A DNA stretch of 64,000 nucleotides from Dehalococcoidia bacterium. Lineage in GTDB: Bacteria; Chloroflexota; Dehalococcoidia; Plut-88900. Shown in pieces: positions 1,255 through 55,458 of the stretch. Below the pieces are notes generated by a model that searched no databases, was not told the origin of the DNA, and saw only the letters and a list, made by a program, of their open reading frames with translations. How positions within the stretch are numbered: position 1 is the stretch's first letter; each line of letters opens with the position of its first letter. Where the stretch lies: the NCBI GenBank assembly GCA_965207225.1, contig CBDBLV010000005.1, positions 736,001 to 800,000 of the forward strand, written 5' to 3'. A program made the position numbers and the translations under genes.

Positions 1255-1466
1255 CTATATCCTCCTGGCTTTGGGGAACAAGCCCAATCATAGCGGCATG
1301 GGACATACTCGACAAGCCTGGATGTAAGTAGCTTCTAATGCCCACCCCCCGACTCCCCTGTCATTCCGATACCCCGCGAGGAATCTGGGGTGGGGTCCAT
1401 CCCCCCAGTACCAAACTAGAGGCAGAGGTTGGCGCTTATGCGCCAACCTCTGCCTCTGTTTTTTCT

Positions 1467-1520
1467 CCCCCTCTCCCTTAATGGCCCTAAGGGAGAGGGG
1501 GACCAAGGGGGTGAGGGTTC
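1467..1520. repeat. REP-like palindromic element (CCCCTCTCCC...GGGAGAGGGG...GGGTGAGGG)
   Basis: Inverted repeat; related copy at ~35682-35722. Confidence 0.6.
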
Positions 1521-1566
1521 CCTTGGAGGGGCCAGGGGGATATCCCCCCAAATGTCACACTACCCC

Positions 1567-1595
1567 TTGACATACAAACATTTGAGCTTTATATT
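1567..1595 (+). promoter_or_regulatory. sigma70-type promoter of repeated ncRNA-like element, copy 1
   Basis: TTGACA (1567-1572), 17-nt spacer, TATATT (1590-1595); same arrangement in copy 2. Confidence 0.85.
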
Positions 1596-1601
1596 TGTTC
1601 T

Positions 1602-2400
1602 AAGTCTAGACCCGACACCAACCTTAAGGAGGAATCGAAAACTCAGGGGAACAACCCCGGCGCCCGGAGGACTCAACGCCCTAGCCCATCCCAATGCCTC
1701 CCCTCTCCCCGTAGGGGGCGACCGGCCAATCGCCCCCCTTACTAGGAGAGCAGGCTGCGGCACAAGCGACAGTCGCCATCTCCTCCACCCCAATCCCGAT
1801 CCATCACATTCCCCTGTCCCCCAGGCGATGGAAAGACGCCCTGGATAGAAGCCACAGCGGACCGGCCATTCCCCCGCCGAGAGATCCTCTCGGTGGCTGG
1901 TTAGCAGCGAGCTTACGCTATATCAAGCTAGGGGTGGGACGGACTGGCTATCCCCGCCCGGGACTGGCTCCCGGAGGTTGGCCCGTAGGCGAGCTTACGC
2001 CATATCAAGCAAGGGGAAAGGCGGGCCGGCTCTACCCCGCCGGGACCGGTTCCCGGGGGTCGGCCTGCCGGCGAGCTTGAGCCATATCAAGCGAGGGGTT
2101 TGCTGGACCACCCAGACCCGAGGGTGCGCGCCATGTAAAGTAACTCCCGGGGGCTACCCGCCGATCACTGGCCCCCACTGCGCCCTTAGGCGCCTGGGAG
2201 CGGGTCAAGGCTCGGATGTCTGCCCGGACAGCCCGTGCTCCCCATCAAGCATAAGGGTGCGGCCGGCTGCAAGTTCCTCCGCCTGCGTGGTGGAGCGGAC
2301 CCTCCATGGCCCCCGACAGCCGGAACACCGCAGAAGAGTGGAGGCCAACGGCTCGCCAGGTGCGTCTTCCATCGCCGCCCCAAAACCCCACCAGACAGAA
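1602..2400 (+). ncRNA. Candidate large structured ncRNA, copy 1 (family unknown)
   Basis: No credible ORF; own promoter; helix 1824-1844/2356-2376; three 82-nt modules; pairing-preserving differences versus copy at ~47.3-48.1 kb; ends approximate. Confidence 0.7.
1907..2098 (+). repeat. Three 28-nt direct repeats GCGAGCTTnnGCyATATCAAGCnAGGGG, period 82 nt
   Basis: Copies at 1907-1934, 1989-2016, 2071-2098. Confidence 0.95.
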
Positions 2401-2567
2401 CCCAAACCCGAAACCTCACAACCGAATAAAGCCTCGATGCGTCACAACCTACCAAAAGAGTTTAGCCACTCGCACGAATCGCCGACGGGGAGTATCATTC
2501 GCGTTGTACGGGACTCGCTTCTCGTGCATGTGGCCCGCTCTAGCGTGGGAAGGCGTGTGAAACAGAT

Positions 2568-3551
2568 ATGAGCGCCGTCATTATCGATGGCCGCCGGATC
2601 GCCGATAATGTCCGGCTGGGCGTTAAATATGGCGTTCAGGAGCTGAAATCCAAGACGGGGGTCGTGCCGGGCCTCGCTGTGGTCCTTGTTTCCGACGACC
2701 CCGCCTCCAGCAGGTACGTTGCTGCCAAGGAGAGGGCCGCCGAGGAGTCCGGCATCTACTCCCAGACTTTCAAACTCCCCGCCAGCACCTCCGAACCCGA
2801 CCTCCTGGACTTCATCGAACGCCTCAACCACGACGACCGGTTCCACGGCATCCTCATCCAGTTCCCCGTCCCGCACGGCATCGACATGCTCAACGTCATC
2901 AACGCCGTTGACCCCATGAAAGACATCGAGGGCCTTCACCCCCTGGATGTGGGCTGGCTCCTGGCCGGAGAGCCCAGATTCGTGCCCTGCACCCCCGCAG
3001 GCATCCATCGAATGCTGGTCTCCATTGGCCACCACCCGGACGGAAAGCACGTAGTGGTGGTCGGCGGTAGCCTCATCGTCGGCCGACCCCTCGCCGCCCT
3101 TCTTCTCCAGGAAAAGCCCTGGGCCAACGCTACCGTTACCATCTGCCATCTCGGCACCACGGACGTCCCCAGCATCACCCGCATGGCCGACATCCTCGTG
3201 GTCGCTACTGGCAACCCCCAGGGCATAACCGGGGACATGGTCAAGAAGGGCGCAGTTGTAGTGGACGTCGGGATACACGCCATCCCGGACCCGACCAGAA
3301 AGAAAGGCTACCGCATCGTCGGCGACGTGGACTACGACTCCGTGAAGGAGAAGGCCCTTGCCATAACTCCCGTGCCGGGAGGTGTGGGAGTAATGACCGT
3401 CGCTATGCTGATGGTCAACACCCTGAAGGCGGCCAGGCTTTCAGCCGAGCCCGTGCTGCCTCCCTTCAGGATCGAGGACTACATGCACATCCGCCCCAGG
3501 TACGACACCGCCCACACCTACCTGACCTACCGGGACCCTACCAGCCGATAG
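2568..3551 (+). CDS. folD: Bifunctional methylene-THF dehydrogenase/cyclohydrolase (divergent, C-terminally extended)
   Basis: IIDG start, YxxxK, GILIQFP, PCTPAG, VVVDVGI, TPVPGGVG motifs. Confidence 0.92.
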   Translation: MSAVIIDGRRIADNVRLGVKYGVQELKSKTGVVPGLAVVLVSDDPASSRYVAAKERAAEESGIYSQTFKLPASTSEPDLLDFIERLNHDDRFHGILIQFPVPHGIDMLNVINAVDPMKDIEGLHPLDVGWLLAGEPRFVPCTPAGIHRMLVSIGHHPDGKHVVVVGGSLIVGRPLAALLLQEKPWANATVTICHLGTTDVPSITRMADILVVATGNPQGITGDMVKKGAVVVDVGIHAIPDPTRKKGYRIVGDVDYDSVKEKALAITPVPGGVGVMTVAMLMVNTLKAARLSAEPVLPPFRIEDYMHIRPRYDTAHTYLTYRDPTSR

Positions 3552-45930: not shown

Positions 45931-46017
45931 TGGTGCCGAAGCCCGGACTCGAACCGGGACAGGGTTTCCCCCAGCGGTTTTTGAGACCGCCGCGTCTGCC
46001 TATTCCGCCACTTCGGC
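45931..46017 (-). tRNA. tRNA-Leu(CAA)
   Basis: GCCGAAG acceptor stem, GCGGT-CTCAAAA-ACCGC anticodon arm, long variable arm, GTTCGAGT, CCA. Confidence 0.95.
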
Positions 46018-46043
46018 CTAACCCGCCTGCGGGCTTAAATGGA

Positions 46044-46119
<76 letters not shown>

Positions 46120-47104: not shown

Positions 47105-47240
47105 CTCCCACAACAGTCTCGCTCCCATAGACCCGCCCCCCATCCCTTCTCCAACATCCAACCCCCAACCCCCTCCCCATCCATCATTCCCGACCCCGAT
47201 CGGAAATCCATCCCCCTCCCCCCCAAATGTGACATACCCC

Positions 47241-47269
47241 TTGACATGCAAACATTTGAGCCTTATATT
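47241..47269 (+). promoter_or_regulatory. sigma70-type promoter of repeated ncRNA-like element, copy 2
   Basis: TTGACA (47241-47246), 17 nt, TATATT (47264-47269). Confidence 0.85.
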
Positions 47270-47275
47270 TGTTCT

Positions 47276-48060
47276 AAGTCTAGACCCAACACTAATTTTA
47301 AGGAGGAACCAAAAACCCGGGGAAGCCCCCGAGACCCGACCCGAGGACTCAACGCCCTAGCCCATCCCAAGACCTCGCCCCTCTCTTGTAGGGGCGACCG
47401 GCCAATCGCCCCCCCTTGCGAGGAAGGAAGGTTGCGGCACAAGCGAACGTCGCCATCTCCTCATCCCACCGGGTCCCGTGCTCCTTCCCTGGTAGTCAGG
47501 CGATGGAAAGACGCCCTGGATAGAAGCCACAGCGGACCGGCCATTCCCCCGCCGAGAGACCCTCTCGGTGGCTGGTTAGCAGCGAGCTTACGCTATATCA
47601 AGCTAGGGGTGGGACGGACCGGCCATCCCCGCCCGGGACTGGCTTCCGGAGGTTGGCCCGTAGGCGAGCTTACGCCATATCAAGCAAGGGGAAATGCGGG
47701 CCGGCTCTACCCCGCCGGGACCGGTTCCCGGGGGTTGGCCCGCCGGCGAGCTTGCGCCATATCAAGCGAGGGGTTTGCTGGACCGCCCAGACCCGAGGGT
47801 GCGCGCCACGTAAAGTAACTCCCGGGGGCTACCCGCCGATCACTGGCCCCCACTGCGCCCTTAGGCGCCTGGGAGCGGGTCAAGGCCCGGCTGTCCGCCC
47901 GAACACCCGGGCACACATCGGGCAGAAGGGTGCGGCCGGCTGCAATCCGCCCCCCGGCGGACCTCCATGGCCCCCGACAGCCGAGCACCGCAAGAGAGTG
48001 GAGGCCACCGGCTCACCAGGTGCGTCTTCCATCGCCGCCCCAAAACCCACCAGACAGAAC
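47276..48060 (+). ncRNA. Candidate large structured ncRNA, copy 2 (family unknown)
   Basis: Paralog of 1602-2400; helix 47499-47519/48016-48036; ends approximate. Confidence 0.7.
47582..47773 (+). repeat. Three 28-nt direct repeats, period 82 nt
   Basis: Copies at 47582-47609, 47664-47691, 47746-47773. Confidence 0.95.
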
Positions 48061-48127
48061 GGAAACCAAAACCCACAACTGAATAGCAATCCGGTGTCTC
48101 CCCTGCTTCCCCAGCAGACACGCACAG

Positions 48128-48156
48128 TTGCCAGCCTCCGCCTTGATTTATATAAT
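48128..48156 (+). promoter_or_regulatory. sigma70-type promoter of speD-speE
   Basis: TTGCCA-17 nt-TATAAT. Confidence 0.75.
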
Positions 48157-48199
48157 GCGTCCTCTACGCGTGTGTAAATCCACTACGGGGGGCGGGTGA

Positions 48200-55383: not shown

Positions 55384-55458
55384 TGGAGCGGGCGAAGGGA
55401 TTCGAACCCTCGACCTCCTGCTTGGGAAGCAGACACTCTACCGCTGAGTTACGCCCGC
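55384..55458 (-). tRNA. tRNA-Gly(CCC)
   Basis: GCGGGCG acceptor, CTGCT-TCCCA-AGCAG anticodon arm, GTTCGAAT, CCA. Confidence 0.95.

Follow-up and report, generated by a model that had tools for sequence, protein, structure and literature searches.

IS200/IS605 elements and their derivatives (PATEs, REP/RAYT) have no inverted terminal repeats and produce no target duplication; they carry hairpins near their ends and are oriented by replication strand, and the active strand of IS608 is on the lagging-strand template. BOX elements are built on the plan boxA-boxB(n)-boxC. According to the abstract on those of Streptococcus pneumoniae (PMC3049150), they are modular interspersed repeats with extensive RNA structure that are transcribed, occur in one species group, turn over slowly, have no known transposase and are thought to affect co-transcribed genes. 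Putative mobile promoters, as outlined by Matus-Garcia, Nijveen and van Passel (2012; commentary PMC3575422), are highly similar promoter sequences that a single genome carries upstream of genes unrelated to one another. The same outline gives their mobilization mechanism as unknown and describes 50-100-nt windows, some with RNA motifs, that occur mostly in pairs (PMC3575422).

The locus analyzed here lies in a 64-kb stretch of DNA (the window) from the 4.03-Mb genome of a sponge-associated Dehalococcoidia bacterium, which is 92% complete and assembled in five contigs with 8.3% contamination. A preliminary description of the window had reported that positions 1545-2430 recur at 47220-48085, and had read the two copies as a stand-alone large RNA comparable to OLE, GOLLD and ROOL. 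The repeat is borne out, with 88% BLAST identity over 884/886 nt and a mean column identity of 90% between copies 1 and 2, but the count of two is not. Searches with nhmmer returned 49 matches to the 5' module and 36 to the 3' module, which resolve into 41 elements of the same architecture, copies 1 and 2 being two of these. Throughout the pairs the 5' and 3' modules stand in constant order and on the same strand. The only long 5'-3' module pair, element E02/E03, is split by an IS21 insertion (IstB, E 7e-58) and is not an autonomous relative.

Among genomes from nine species of one genus, sequence model R1 detected 23-69 copies per genome in 9/9 species, a further departure from a two-copy RNA gene. 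The same model had no match in any of three sister-genus genomes, and blastn found no cassette in 32 other genomes from the same family and class. An exact 18-mer scan of genome contigs returned at least 80 loci. Among the matches listed, 68/80 were in 'Dehalococcoidia bacterium' MAG records, all 68 with the 5' module, and the 12 in other taxa contained none (0/12). Two exact cassette 28/29-mers had no match in JGI metagenome contigs. Judged by these searches, the family is confined to one genus. That it consists of genus-specific, ORF-less, promoter-carrying mosaic cassettes in sponge-associated Dehalococcoidia is largely shown. The family is absent from the literature found on mobile promoters, sponge and Chloroflexi symbiont repeats and large noncoding RNAs, a body of work that excludes the 2012 mobile-promoter lists. 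The cassette-bearing genomes are apparently far newer than that survey.

All copies follow one plan, in which a sigma-70 promoter is succeeded by AAGGAGGAA, a modular leader, a clamp helix with its core, and a tail, over a length of 0.4-0.9 kb and with no ORF. The cassettes are mosaics: three promoter types, at least nine core classes and two tail variants recombine freely. In copy 1, positions 1545-1595 (+ strand) comprise the left edge of the similarity shared by the family (CCCCCCAAATG...) and a sigma-70-type promoter. The promoter reads TTGACA-17-TATATT, as previously described, at 1567-1595 in copy 1 and 47241-47269 in copy 2; that of copy 1 matches 11/12 consensus positions, and shuffles contain 0.4 ± 0.6 sites per region. 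Across the 41 copies all three promoter types, divergent in sequence, keep a TTGAC -35, a 17-nt spacer and a TAnnnT -10. Approximately 25-30 nt past the inferred start is AAGGAGGAA (1626-1634, + strand), a perfect Shine-Dalgarno-like motif with no start codon behind it. This motif is near-invariant among 87 distinct leaders in nine genomes, and a conserved reading frame after it is excluded because 1-2-nt indels occur downstream. The leader (1626-1823, + strand) consists of a conserved 70-nt block, near-invariant across ~420 copies, and then optional hairpin modules that are gained or lost whole between copies.

The two strands of the clamp helix, GGCGATGGAAAGACGCCCTGG at 1824-1844 and CCAGGTGCGTCTTCCATCGCC at 2356-2376 (both + strand), pair with one another and are complementary as written in the preliminary description. 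The invariant helix, GGCGATGGA/TCCATCGCC, encloses one of at least nine interchangeable structured cores. Its base, GCGATGGA/TCCATCGC, is kept in 41/41 copies; the extension varies with core class but retains its pairing, and the 9-bp base is near-invariant across ~420 copies. The core of copy 1 (1845-2355, + strand) belongs to class core3 and contains entry hairpins, an 82-nt module, and a 3' multi-helix domain with a junction sub-domain at 2115-2208 (+ strand). Three 82-nt modules had been proposed. The tandem repeat is present (TRF; period 82, 1907-2099, 80% matches), but at 2.4 copies its third unit is partial; the 21 homologous cores in nine genomes each have two or three module starts.

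Repeat modules with no assigned strand, which either arrived with copy 1 or are nested beside it, occupy 1324-1544; six species whose folD site is empty lack this stretch. The modules include a small hairpin repeat (~1362-1390), a terminator-like hairpin with a T-run (1413-1468), a perfect 15-bp palindrome (1466-1502) and, at 1503-1544, a G-rich repeat. By blastn, positions 1500-1545 match at a depth of 36-58 genomic places, and in DNA runs the depth of the 1324-1544 repeats is 10-50 times that of the element.

The absence of a credible ORF, noted earlier, holds on closer comparison. The ORFs that overlap copy 1 (1429-1848 and 1978-2571) and copy 2 (47653-48177) have no Pfam family, and the frame is not kept between copies: outside stretches with ~95% DNA identity the "protein" sequences no longer agree, and register is lost by 1-, 2- and 12-nt indels. 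A coding element was rejected on these grounds.

The element is structured on the promoter strand only. On the + strand the core has an MFE of -281.7 kcal/mol compared to -259.5 ± 6.2 kcal/mol for shuffles (z -3.58; 0/100 as good), and on the - strand z is -0.08 with 39/100 shuffles as good. Every helix previously named in the 3' domain is found in the sequence, and the pairing of helices Pb (CTCCC/GGGAG) and Pd (GCGCC/GGCGC) survives two-sided changes in relatives. Within the sub-domain at 2115-2208, 90.9% of cells pair versus 40-59% with a slid partner, 4/22 pairs change on both sides, and the covariation score is reached by 0/500 shuffles. Compensatory changes were observed in 7/109 pairs of the class C core (RNAalifold, 21 cores) and in 2/76 pairs of the class A core. 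An automatic covarying-helix search on a MAFFT alignment, in which helices shift register between clades, recovered one 4-bp helix with three covarying pairs; MFE folds of the sub-domain shared a common topology in about half of 21 sequences. Covariation, suggested earlier as a check on the RNA, is thus present as compensatory changes, but as it mainly separates two clades the independent events are few. Within the cores, blocks of 20-30 nt stay unchanged among species that diverge by 14-17% in their FolD proteins, which argues for sequence-specific RNA function and not selfish spread alone.

In agreement with the earlier impression that no known family applies, Rfam 15 has no match to the element. 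At the gathering score the whole window yielded three tRNAs only. The 39 matches to 1400-2600 at E≤10 were all far below gathering and mostly to miRNA models, and 13 loci with other core classes returned only flanking 5S rRNA and tRNA at E≤0.01. A known RNA family was ruled out, as neither of the two copies nor any other core class matches Rfam. A group II intron or ribozyme was likewise rejected (no model match, and the element has its own promoter), as was an omega-RNA of the TnpB/IscB kind (the genome yielded no TnpB domain, and HEARO is not matched).

The element shows signs of transcription. RNA-library (metatranscriptome) contigs cover 1663-1851, 1937-2096 and 2114-2322; they are short, are ~88% identical and so derive from relatives, and none reaches the tail or folD. 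No RNA contig lies over 1300-1662, 2323-2600 or folD, a kind of data that cannot show absence and so has no bearing on read-through. Neighbouring repeats at 1357-1527 are missing from the RNA contigs, though they are 10-50 times deeper in DNA runs.

These observations bear on whether the family could be an interspersed repeat at the level of DNA only, like REP/BIME, with hairpins that act as DNA or as incidental RNA and promoter hexamers that are accidental or silent. REP/BIME repeats are mostly at the 3' ends of genes, and we know of no co-orientation with genes among their features. Such an origin would suit a genome full of other small palindromic repeats, interleaved with the element, and would suit the mosaic organization and the gain and loss of copies between species. 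It does not account for the retention of TTGAC-17-TAnnnT by three different promoter sequences, for strict co-orientation with genes, or for an RNA library that holds the element and not the far more abundant neighbouring repeats. Fold stability on the + strand only also implies G-U pairs, so RNA and not duplex-symmetric DNA. We regard a DNA-level repeat as very improbable.

STAB-SD is a stabilizer against RNase J at the 5' end of a transcript, and a rut site is an unstructured, untranslated RNA of ~60-80 nt with much more C than G. The genome contains an RNase J gene and a Rho gene (Rho_RNA_bind domain in a 453-aa frame). The tail of copy 1 (2377-2430, + strand), which ends ...CACAACCGAATA, is C/A-rich, G-poor and structure-free. 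Thirty-six tails of 60 nt contain A 43%, C 40%, G 12% and T 6%, with a mean MFE of -1.4 kcal/mol versus -15.5 for genome 60-mers; by composition only, with Rho present, they have the properties of a rut site. A post-tail spacer (2431-2467, + strand) lies within the inserted block and is absent from empty folD sites, and other copies have a semi-conserved ~44-nt spacer after the tail. Terminator-like hairpins were found within 300 nt of 10/36 copies, compared to 41/400 random windows. A very strong intrinsic terminator module is located 74-135 nt behind four copies, which fits a stand-alone RNA better. As the RNA contigs are short, come from relatives and stop before the tail and folD, both read-through and Rho termination are steps that we infer.

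Comparison with empty sites defined what had been inserted. The gene folD (2568-3551, + strand) has a native upstream region (2468-2567, + strand) that is conserved in all nine species; the element is present there in 3/9 species, and at empty sites similarity resumes at ~2468. At speD the whole inserted block is 1011 nt long (47112-48122, + strand) and includes copy 2 proper (47220-48085, + strand) with its promoter, clamp and core, and tail. The block is absent in species G001 and G006, where the speD promoter is directly behind the stop codon of the upstream gene. The native speD promoter, TTGCCA-17-TATAAT (48128-48156, + strand), begins 5 nt past the right end of the insertion, and the empty sites of G001 and G006 carry TTGTCA-17-TATAAT. 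Species G005 and G007 have at speD an element with a different core. At nusA, where the element occurs in 4/9 species, the right insertion edge is at the native -35. The native promoter is intact right behind the insertion at both speD and nusA, and together with the conserved native region at folD this indicates that these loci do not depend on the cassette for a promoter. At recA (3/9 species) the TTGACA-17-TATACT promoter of the empty G005 site is gone, replaced by the insertion. Copies are therefore gained and lost between species.

No terminal inverted repeats join the ends of either inserted block (folD or speD), and the speD junctions could share at most a 3-4-nt CAC(A), in a comparison limited by the divergence of the empty-site species. 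The preliminary description had raised a MITE as a contrary outcome. The cassettes do behave as a non-autonomous mobile repeat, but they have neither the terminal inverted repeats nor a convincing target duplication. Within the 92%-complete genome there were no matches to the Y1 (HUH) transposase (PF01797) or to TnpB (PF07282), and no autonomous transposase-bearing relative of the cassette was found.

The products encoded downstream include RpoB, NusA, RecA, GyrB, UvrA, LeuRS, Glu/Gln-RS, S15, FolD, SpeD, RibF and RNase HII, along with Lgt, MoaA, a peroxidase, amidohydrolases and peptidases. A Pfam family was assigned to 31/40 downstream ORFs, and these are unrelated to one another. Highly similar promoter-bearing stretches thus precede non-homologous genes, the property by which putative mobile promoters are recognized, taken here without their authors' -150 to -50 window. 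Copies were found only in 5' intergenic regions. With gene calls from a crude ORF and GC3 filter, 33/41 copies share the orientation of the gene downstream, and since seven of the eight exceptions are low-GC3 ORFs ahead of a same-strand high-GC3 gene, the corrected figure is ~40/41. The upstream neighbour is co-oriented in only 20/42 cases. Eight other MAG assemblies gave 45/53 for co-orientation.

The sense strand of the cassette is also the C-rich strand of local GC skew in 34/41 elements, and in 27/28 of those where |skew| exceeds 0.05. As controls, 711/1380 genes (51%) and 17/35 tRNAs are on the C-rich strand; in a larger set, 22/49 tRNAs are on this strand and 1975 genes have no bias. The rule was replicated in other genomes (60/66 elements). 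GC skew serves here as a proxy for the replication strand; dnaA does not coincide with a skew switch, and the single 16S gene lies on the C-rich strand. By this proxy, the orientation bias expected of IS200/IS605 derivatives is present. Selection for the direction of replication, of the kind that acts on highly expressed genes, is not supported, as genes and tRNAs are unbiased. The absence of the rule from genes and tRNAs points to replication- or ssDNA-coupled insertion, or to very strong orientation-specific selection.

Co-orientation with the downstream gene, and the replacement of the native recA promoter by the cassette, might instead reflect host-selected regulatory leaders of riboswitch or attenuator type. 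The cores would sense a signal or bind a factor across a ~40-operon regulon, and the clamp would be a switch of P1 type, controlling access to the rut-like tail and so setting Rho-dependent read-through. A P1-like clamp with variable cores and then a rut-like tail does resemble an aptamer with an expression platform, and Rho is present. Core class is, however, unlinked to gene function, core1 preceding nusA, leuS, moaA, rpoB and amidohydrolases, and the same gene can be with or without the element depending on the species, or have another core (speD, G005 and G007). The native promoters that follow the tail at the speD and nusA loci also speak against it, and the GC-skew rule is not expected of a regulatory leader. 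No riboswitch-type link to one pathway was found across species, where the genes are unrelated and presence is variable at folD, recA, nusA and speD; presence and absence at these four loci also rule out a conserved leader of particular genes. A regulatory origin seems to us doubtful.

A different reading keeps the cassettes as stand-alone, trans-acting large structured RNAs with ~40 paralogues, the clamp, core and tail forming a machine or scaffold in which the cores set specificity. Position would matter only so that leaky termination avoids antisense into neighbours. Each copy does have its own conserved promoter, folding is strand-specific, long blocks inside the cores are invariant across species, and ~420 copies show hardly any variation in the 9-bp clamp base or the 70-nt leader block. 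The strong terminator module behind four copies, the native promoters retained behind the cassette at speD and nusA, and RNA contigs over the element body only all agree with such a gene. Yet a well-terminated RNA gene would not need to be co-oriented in ~40/41 cases and restricted to 5' intergenic regions, and 26/36 copies have no terminator-like hairpin. Turnover of copy positions between species, free shuffling of modules and limitation to one genus also speak against it. What survives of the original proposal is a promoter-driven unit with no conserved ORF, with structure on the promoter strand, with signs of transcription and with no counterpart in Rfam 15; a two-copy stand-alone gene does not, being countered as well by the mosaic make-up, co-orientation with unrelated genes, gain and loss, and GC-skew-bound orientation. 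We consider trans-acting RNAs unlikely, although this reading deserves some weight.

The reading we favor, with confidence evenly divided for and against it, is a mobile promoter/structured-RNA cassette of selfish origin that rewires or buffers ~40 operons per genome in cis. As a pattern it is shown that ~1-kb blocks are copied into intergenic regions, between the upstream gene and the promoter of the downstream gene; the cassette's own promoter would fire there. Binding of 30S subunits to the 5' SD-like motif could shield the RNA from RNase J in the manner of STAB-SD, and the clamp would keep the core compactly folded. The tail, C-rich and untranslated, may then act as a Rho-loading (rut-like) site that stops most transcripts before the host gene's own promoter. 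Transcripts that escape termination would enter the host gene, and we propose that this read-through is why only co-oriented insertions are tolerated. At recA, with the native promoter displaced, the cassette would now provide the gene's promoter and a long structured leader.

A bolder and, in our view, unlikely extension is that the cassettes represent an unrecognized kind of mobile element. This would be a protein-less RNA-gene cassette with one-way docking at or near the host -35 (two loci) and replication-strand-specific insertion. Insertion of such an element might proceed via ssDNA, or via cDNA of the cassette transcript made by a genomic reverse transcriptase; the genome has four RT-domain genes. 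The element would deliver a large RNA composed of a clamp plus an exchangeable core. Its conserved cores would be functional RNA modules that together spread a layer of RNA throughout the genus across ~40 housekeeping operons, among them rpoB, nusA, recA and gyrB.

If the favored cassette reading is true, ~1% of these symbiont genomes would be self-propagating transcription units ahead of core genes (RNA polymerase, NusA, RecA, gyrase and tRNA synthetases), a natural case in which a mobile RNA cassette rewires promoters and leaders on a large scale. The strand rule provides a handle on a putative replication-coupled insertion mechanism. The clamp with its swappable core may be a natural scaffold for large RNA domains, with at least nine new conserved folds, none in Rfam. 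The 5' SD-like motif and 3' rut-like tail suggest a compact route to stable, self-terminating non-coding transcripts. Caution is warranted, as the family may be mostly selfish DNA whose RNA has no host function.

HEARO, like the cassettes, is multi-copy and linked to mobile DNA. With OLE, GOLLD, ROOL, HEARO and raiA the cassettes share a size of 0.5-0.9 kb, many helices and no ORF. They differ in that no Rfam model matches any of the nine core classes, no associated protein gene such as IscB or TnpB was found, and their mosaic family occurs in a single genus at specific positions. The likeness to STAB-SD, a perfect 5' SD without a start codon in a genome with RNase J, is a resemblance of sequence only. 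The same is true of rut sites, which the tails resemble in being untranslated, free of structure, 60 nt or longer and much richer in C than in G, in a genome with Rho. The lack of inverted ends, hairpins near the ends and the strand-bound orientation are common to the cassettes and IS200/IS605 derivatives, but no Y1 transposase gene was detected in the cassette genome and the cassettes are far larger and promoter-bearing. The cassette sense strand is on the C-rich strand, compared to the lagging-strand template for the active strand of IS608. BOX elements, as far as their abstract describes them, share conserved end modules, a variable number of internal modules, extensive RNA structure, transcription, confinement to one group, slow turnover, the lack of a known transposase and a proposed effect on co-transcribed genes. 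They are much smaller and lack a conserved promoter at a fixed end, and the clamp with interchangeable core, rut-like tail and GC-skew rule, which do not appear in that abstract, belong to the cassette. With putative mobile promoters, as outlined in the 2012 survey, the cassettes share a similar promoter-bearing sequence before unrelated genes of one genome; relative to that outline they are distinguished by a length of 0.4-0.9 kb, 23-69 copies, a long structured transcript, a modular plan and the strand rule.

An intergenic stretch (copy 1, 1545-2430, upstream of folD) had been described as recurring at 47220-48085 (copy 2, upstream of speD), and this observation was confirmed. BLAST aligns the two copies at 88% identity over 884 of 886 nt, with a mean column identity of 90%. 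Both are headed by TTGACA-17-TATATT (1567-1595 and 47241-47269), which scores 11/12 for copy 1 in a consensus scan; the shuffled region gives 0.4 +/- 0.6 promoter-like sites. The long-range helix that encloses the core, here called the clamp, pairs 1824-1844 with 2356-2376 exactly as reported, and Tandem Repeats Finder recovers the 82-nt modules (period 82, 2.4 copies, 1907-2099). The stretch was said to lack a credible ORF; its overlapping ORFs have no Pfam family, and the frame is broken between the copies by indels of 1, 2 and 12 nt. The copy 1 region, for which no known family had been recognized, matches none in Rfam, and neither do the remaining core classes. The count of two copies did not hold. 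Iterated nhmmer searches of the 4.03-Mb genome returned 49 matches for the 5' part (1555-1835) and 36 for the 3' part (2356-2432). The two parts share order and strand throughout, and the matches resolve into 41 elements of 0.4-0.9 kb each.

The elements share one plan. The promoter is of one of three types that diverge in sequence but all retain TTGAC, a 17-nt spacer and TAnnnT; approximately 35 nt after it comes a Shine-Dalgarno (SD)-like motif, AAGGAGGAA, with no start codon behind it. Next come a leader of hairpin modules whose presence varies by copy, the clamp, the core, and a C/A-rich tail. The base of the clamp, GCGATGGA/TCCATCGC, is kept in 41/41 copies, and its extension is class-specific yet pairs. 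BLAST separates nine core classes with 14, 10, 6, 2, 2, 2, 2, 2 and 1 members, the core of copy 1 belonging to the class of six (class C), and promoter types combine in many ways with core classes and with two variants of the tail. One element, E02/E03, is split by a 2.6-kb insertion encoding an IstB_IS21 protein. This IS21-family insertion lies in the leader (contig C1, 67078-69661; loci L249, L014 and L028) and carries ORFs of 264 aa (IstB_IS21, E 7e-58) and 526 aa; weak Bac_DnaA matches point to some 13 IstB-like copies genome-wide.

The 60 nt past the clamp consist of 43% A, 40% C, 12% G and 6% T and are nearly free of structure (mean MFE -1.4 vs -15.5 kcal/mol for genome 60-mers), a composition that we take to be that of a Rho-loading site. 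Rho is encoded in the genome and would load on the tail. A terminator-like hairpin is found within 300 nt in only 10/36 copies, compared with 41/400 random windows, and in four of these ten the hairpin belongs to a repeated, very strong terminator module. The SD-like motif would be bound by 30S subunits. SD-like sequences that stabilize RNA 5' ends are known from the STAB-SD work in Bacillus, and such a role is plausible here because the genome encodes RNase J.

The family is restricted to one genus. It was detected by blastn in 8/8 other species of the genus; three more genera in the family and 29 additional genomes from the class had no match. When the 70-nt leader block was used as a sequence model, it found 44, 39, 42, 69, 41, 57, 52, 23 and 54 copies in the nine genus genomes, and no copies in three sister-genus genomes (94, 94 and 80% complete). 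Among the listed matches of an exact 18-mer scan across 185,579 species genomes, 80 loci were examined; 68 are "MAG: Dehalococcoidia bacterium" records, all 68 with the 5' module, which occurs at 0/12 loci in other taxa. Public runs containing the copy 1 stretch are mostly labelled as sponge or marine metagenomes. JGI metagenome contigs contained no exact match to either of two motifs (28 and 29 nt).

The copies keep to rules of position and orientation. By crude calls based on ORFs and a GC3 filter, the downstream neighbor is co-oriented in 33/41 cases and the upstream neighbor in 20/42; across eight further MAG assemblies, 45 of the 53 elements with a callable neighbor point the same way as their downstream gene. 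In seven of the eight exceptions the called neighbor is a low-GC3 ORF lacking any Pfam family and located before a same-strand high-GC3 gene, and only E36 faces a real convergent gene (NurA domain). The downstream genes, 31/40 of which have a Pfam family, are unrelated and include RpoB, NusA, RecA, GyrB, UvrA, LeuRS, Glu/Gln-tRNA synthetase, S15, FolD, SpeD, RibF, RNase HII, Lgt, MoaA, peroxidase, PrpD, amidohydrolases, peptidases and transporters. The co-orientation would be explained if transcription partly reads through into the host gene. Element E20 lies approximately 420 nt upstream of a co-oriented 5S rRNA gene (L012:234-351; contig C4, ~597450-597567, minus strand), and E18 precedes a PrpD-like gene and then the single 16S rRNA gene (C4, 510741-512337). 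Three tRNA genes are on the minus strand (45934-46119 and 55387-55458); two of them, which ARAGORN calls as Leu and Phe, precede copy 2 by about 1.1 kb and have the opposite orientation.

Comparison of the nine species (G000, the genome holding the window, and G001-G008) revealed filled and empty sites. The folD site is filled in G000, G008 and G005 and empty in G007, G001, G006, G004, G003 and G002, whose intergenic regions measure approximately 200 nt. The inserted block spans ~1324-2467, other small repeats included, and the native upstream region, 2468-2567, is conserved across all species. A partial palindrome in this region, ACTCGCACGAA ... TATCATTCGCG (2468-2510 and the empty sites L084-L089; all nine species), may be an operator or leader hairpin. 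Every genome of the genus also has a second FolD homologue, 56-59% identical; the three of these loci examined (L090-L092, from G000, G005 and G008) have no element. Upstream of speD in G001 and G006, 9 nt separate the preceding gene's stop codon from TTGTCA-17-TATAAT. The corresponding interval in G000 contains a 1011-nt block (47112-48122), placed between the upstream gene and the native promoter, TTGCCA-17-TATAAT (48128-48156), which starts 5 nt past the block; in G005 and G007 the element found here has a different core. The nusA site is filled in 4/9 species, and the G000 insertion ends exactly at the native TTGCAA-17-TATAAT. At speD and nusA the cassette is an additional upstream unit. 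The recA site is filled in 3/9 species; here the block took the place of 134 nt that include TTGACA-17-TATACT in the empty site of G005. The native promoter has therefore been lost, and the cassette now appears to be the promoter and leader of recA. Just upstream of recA, a tandem array of five 9-11-nt units (...TTCAATCAA...; L229 in G000, L232 in G005), conserved between the two species, may be a regulator binding-site array. In 7/36 G000 copies a TTGnnn-17/18-TAnnnT promoter follows 43-45 nt past the tail, behind a semi-conserved spacer. The elements show neither terminal inverted repeats nor a convincing target duplication, and no Y1 transposase or TnpB was found in the genome. Four frames have an RT domain, two identical at 586 aa and two of 641-652 aa (C2:158087-158773; C5:1548409-1549095, 1553608-1554405 and 1671488-1672288).

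Three small repeats accompany the elements. The first (1466-1545), in which a perfect 15-bp palindrome (TCCCCCTCTCCCTTA / TAAGGGAGAGGGGGA) precedes a G-rich block (GGACCAAGGGGGTGAGGGTTCCC...), also lies upstream of about 25 other elements; its blastn depth is 36-58 genome places, and it reaches 10-50 times the depth of the large element in three DNA runs. The second (1413-1468, plus strand) is a strong terminator-like hairpin of 19 pairs with a T-run, in a divergent intergenic region with no plus-strand gene to terminate. It recurs behind the tails of E00, E01, E27 and E40, and it resembles a mobile terminator module. The third, CATTCC(C)GA...TCGG(G)AATC (~1362-1390 and 47180-47212), is interleaved with the large elements and also follows the tails of E08, E19, E21, E24, E29 and E36.

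The elements also obey a strand rule. GC-skew domains in G000 are strong (up to +/-0.2 per 50 kb) and change sign several times per contig (C1-C5), and there is no gene-strand bias (about 50%). With skew measured in 20-kb windows after removal of the element, the sense strand is the C-rich strand in 34/41 elements, and in 27/28 at |skew| > 0.05. Genes lie on the C-rich strand in 50.7% of cases (711/1380 where skew is strong), which gives the elements a binomial p of 3e-5; of the tRNA genes, 22/49 lie there (17/35 where skew is strong). Among 66 distinct elements in other MAG records the rule holds for 60/66 (53/58), the skew being taken from the rest of the 8-kb locus without a gene control. 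Since genes and tRNAs ignore the skew, the rule seems to reflect the way in which elements insert or survive, with GC skew as a proxy; insertion might be coupled to replication. dnaA (C5, 122.6 kb) is away from any skew switch and the assembly is fragmented, so the rule is given in terms of the C-rich strand, not of a leading strand. Possible reasons for strong skew domains without gene bias are rearrangements, joins in the assembly or an unusual arrangement of replication.

Whether the conserved entity is RNA or DNA was addressed by folding, covariation and transcription. The 562-nt core folds at -281.7 kcal/mol, compared with -259.5 +/- 6.2 for shuffles (z -3.58; 0/100 as good), and its reverse strand gives z -0.08 (39/100 as good). 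This strand-specific stability, together with a promoter consensus kept in three unrelated backgrounds, favors RNA, and a strand-specific fold of the cassette RNA is likely. RNAalifold predicts 76 pairs for the class A core (25 sequences from seven genomes, 83% identity), only two of them changed on both sides, and 109 pairs for class C (21 sequences, 74% identity), seven of them compensatory. In the junction sub-domain 2115-2208, with four helices defined by hand, 90.9% of cells are paired, compared with 40-59% when the 3' partners are slid; 4/22 pairs change on both sides (33 cells), a covariation score reached by 0/500 shuffles. Compensatory changes exist, but they represent few independent events because they mostly divide two clades, and structural conservation is likely, not proven. 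A 46-Mb metatranscriptome from another sponge sample contains contigs at 1663-1851, 1937-2096 and 2114-2322 (~88% identity) and none over the neighboring repeats at 1357-1527, which three DNA runs cover 10-50 times more deeply than the element. The absence of the deeper repeats hints at transcription rather than carried-over DNA. Such contigs cannot show ends; transcription from the cassette's own promoter is likely.

The feature is real and absent from Rfam and from the searchable literature, where we found no report of the family. Its genomic behavior is more unusual than first seen, and the classical stand-alone large RNA of the preliminary description is less likely. The description that fits best is a mobile, ORF-less cassette of promoter plus structured RNA. 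The main rival, a family of trans-acting RNAs, is kept alive by the long invariant blocks within cores and leader and by the copies with their own strong terminator. What characterizes the cassette is a combination: a fixed promoter, a clamp with exchangeable cores, a rut-like tail, docking before host promoters and the GC-skew rule. None of the systems compared here is known to show that combination. OLE, GOLLD, ROOL and HEARO are known to have only size class in common with it. IS200/IS605-type elements likewise lack inverted ends and show strand bias, but their transposase is missing from this genome. The closest modular, structured and transcribed repeat is the pneumococcal BOX element (PMC3049150), and the closest concept is that of putative mobile promoters (PMC3575422).
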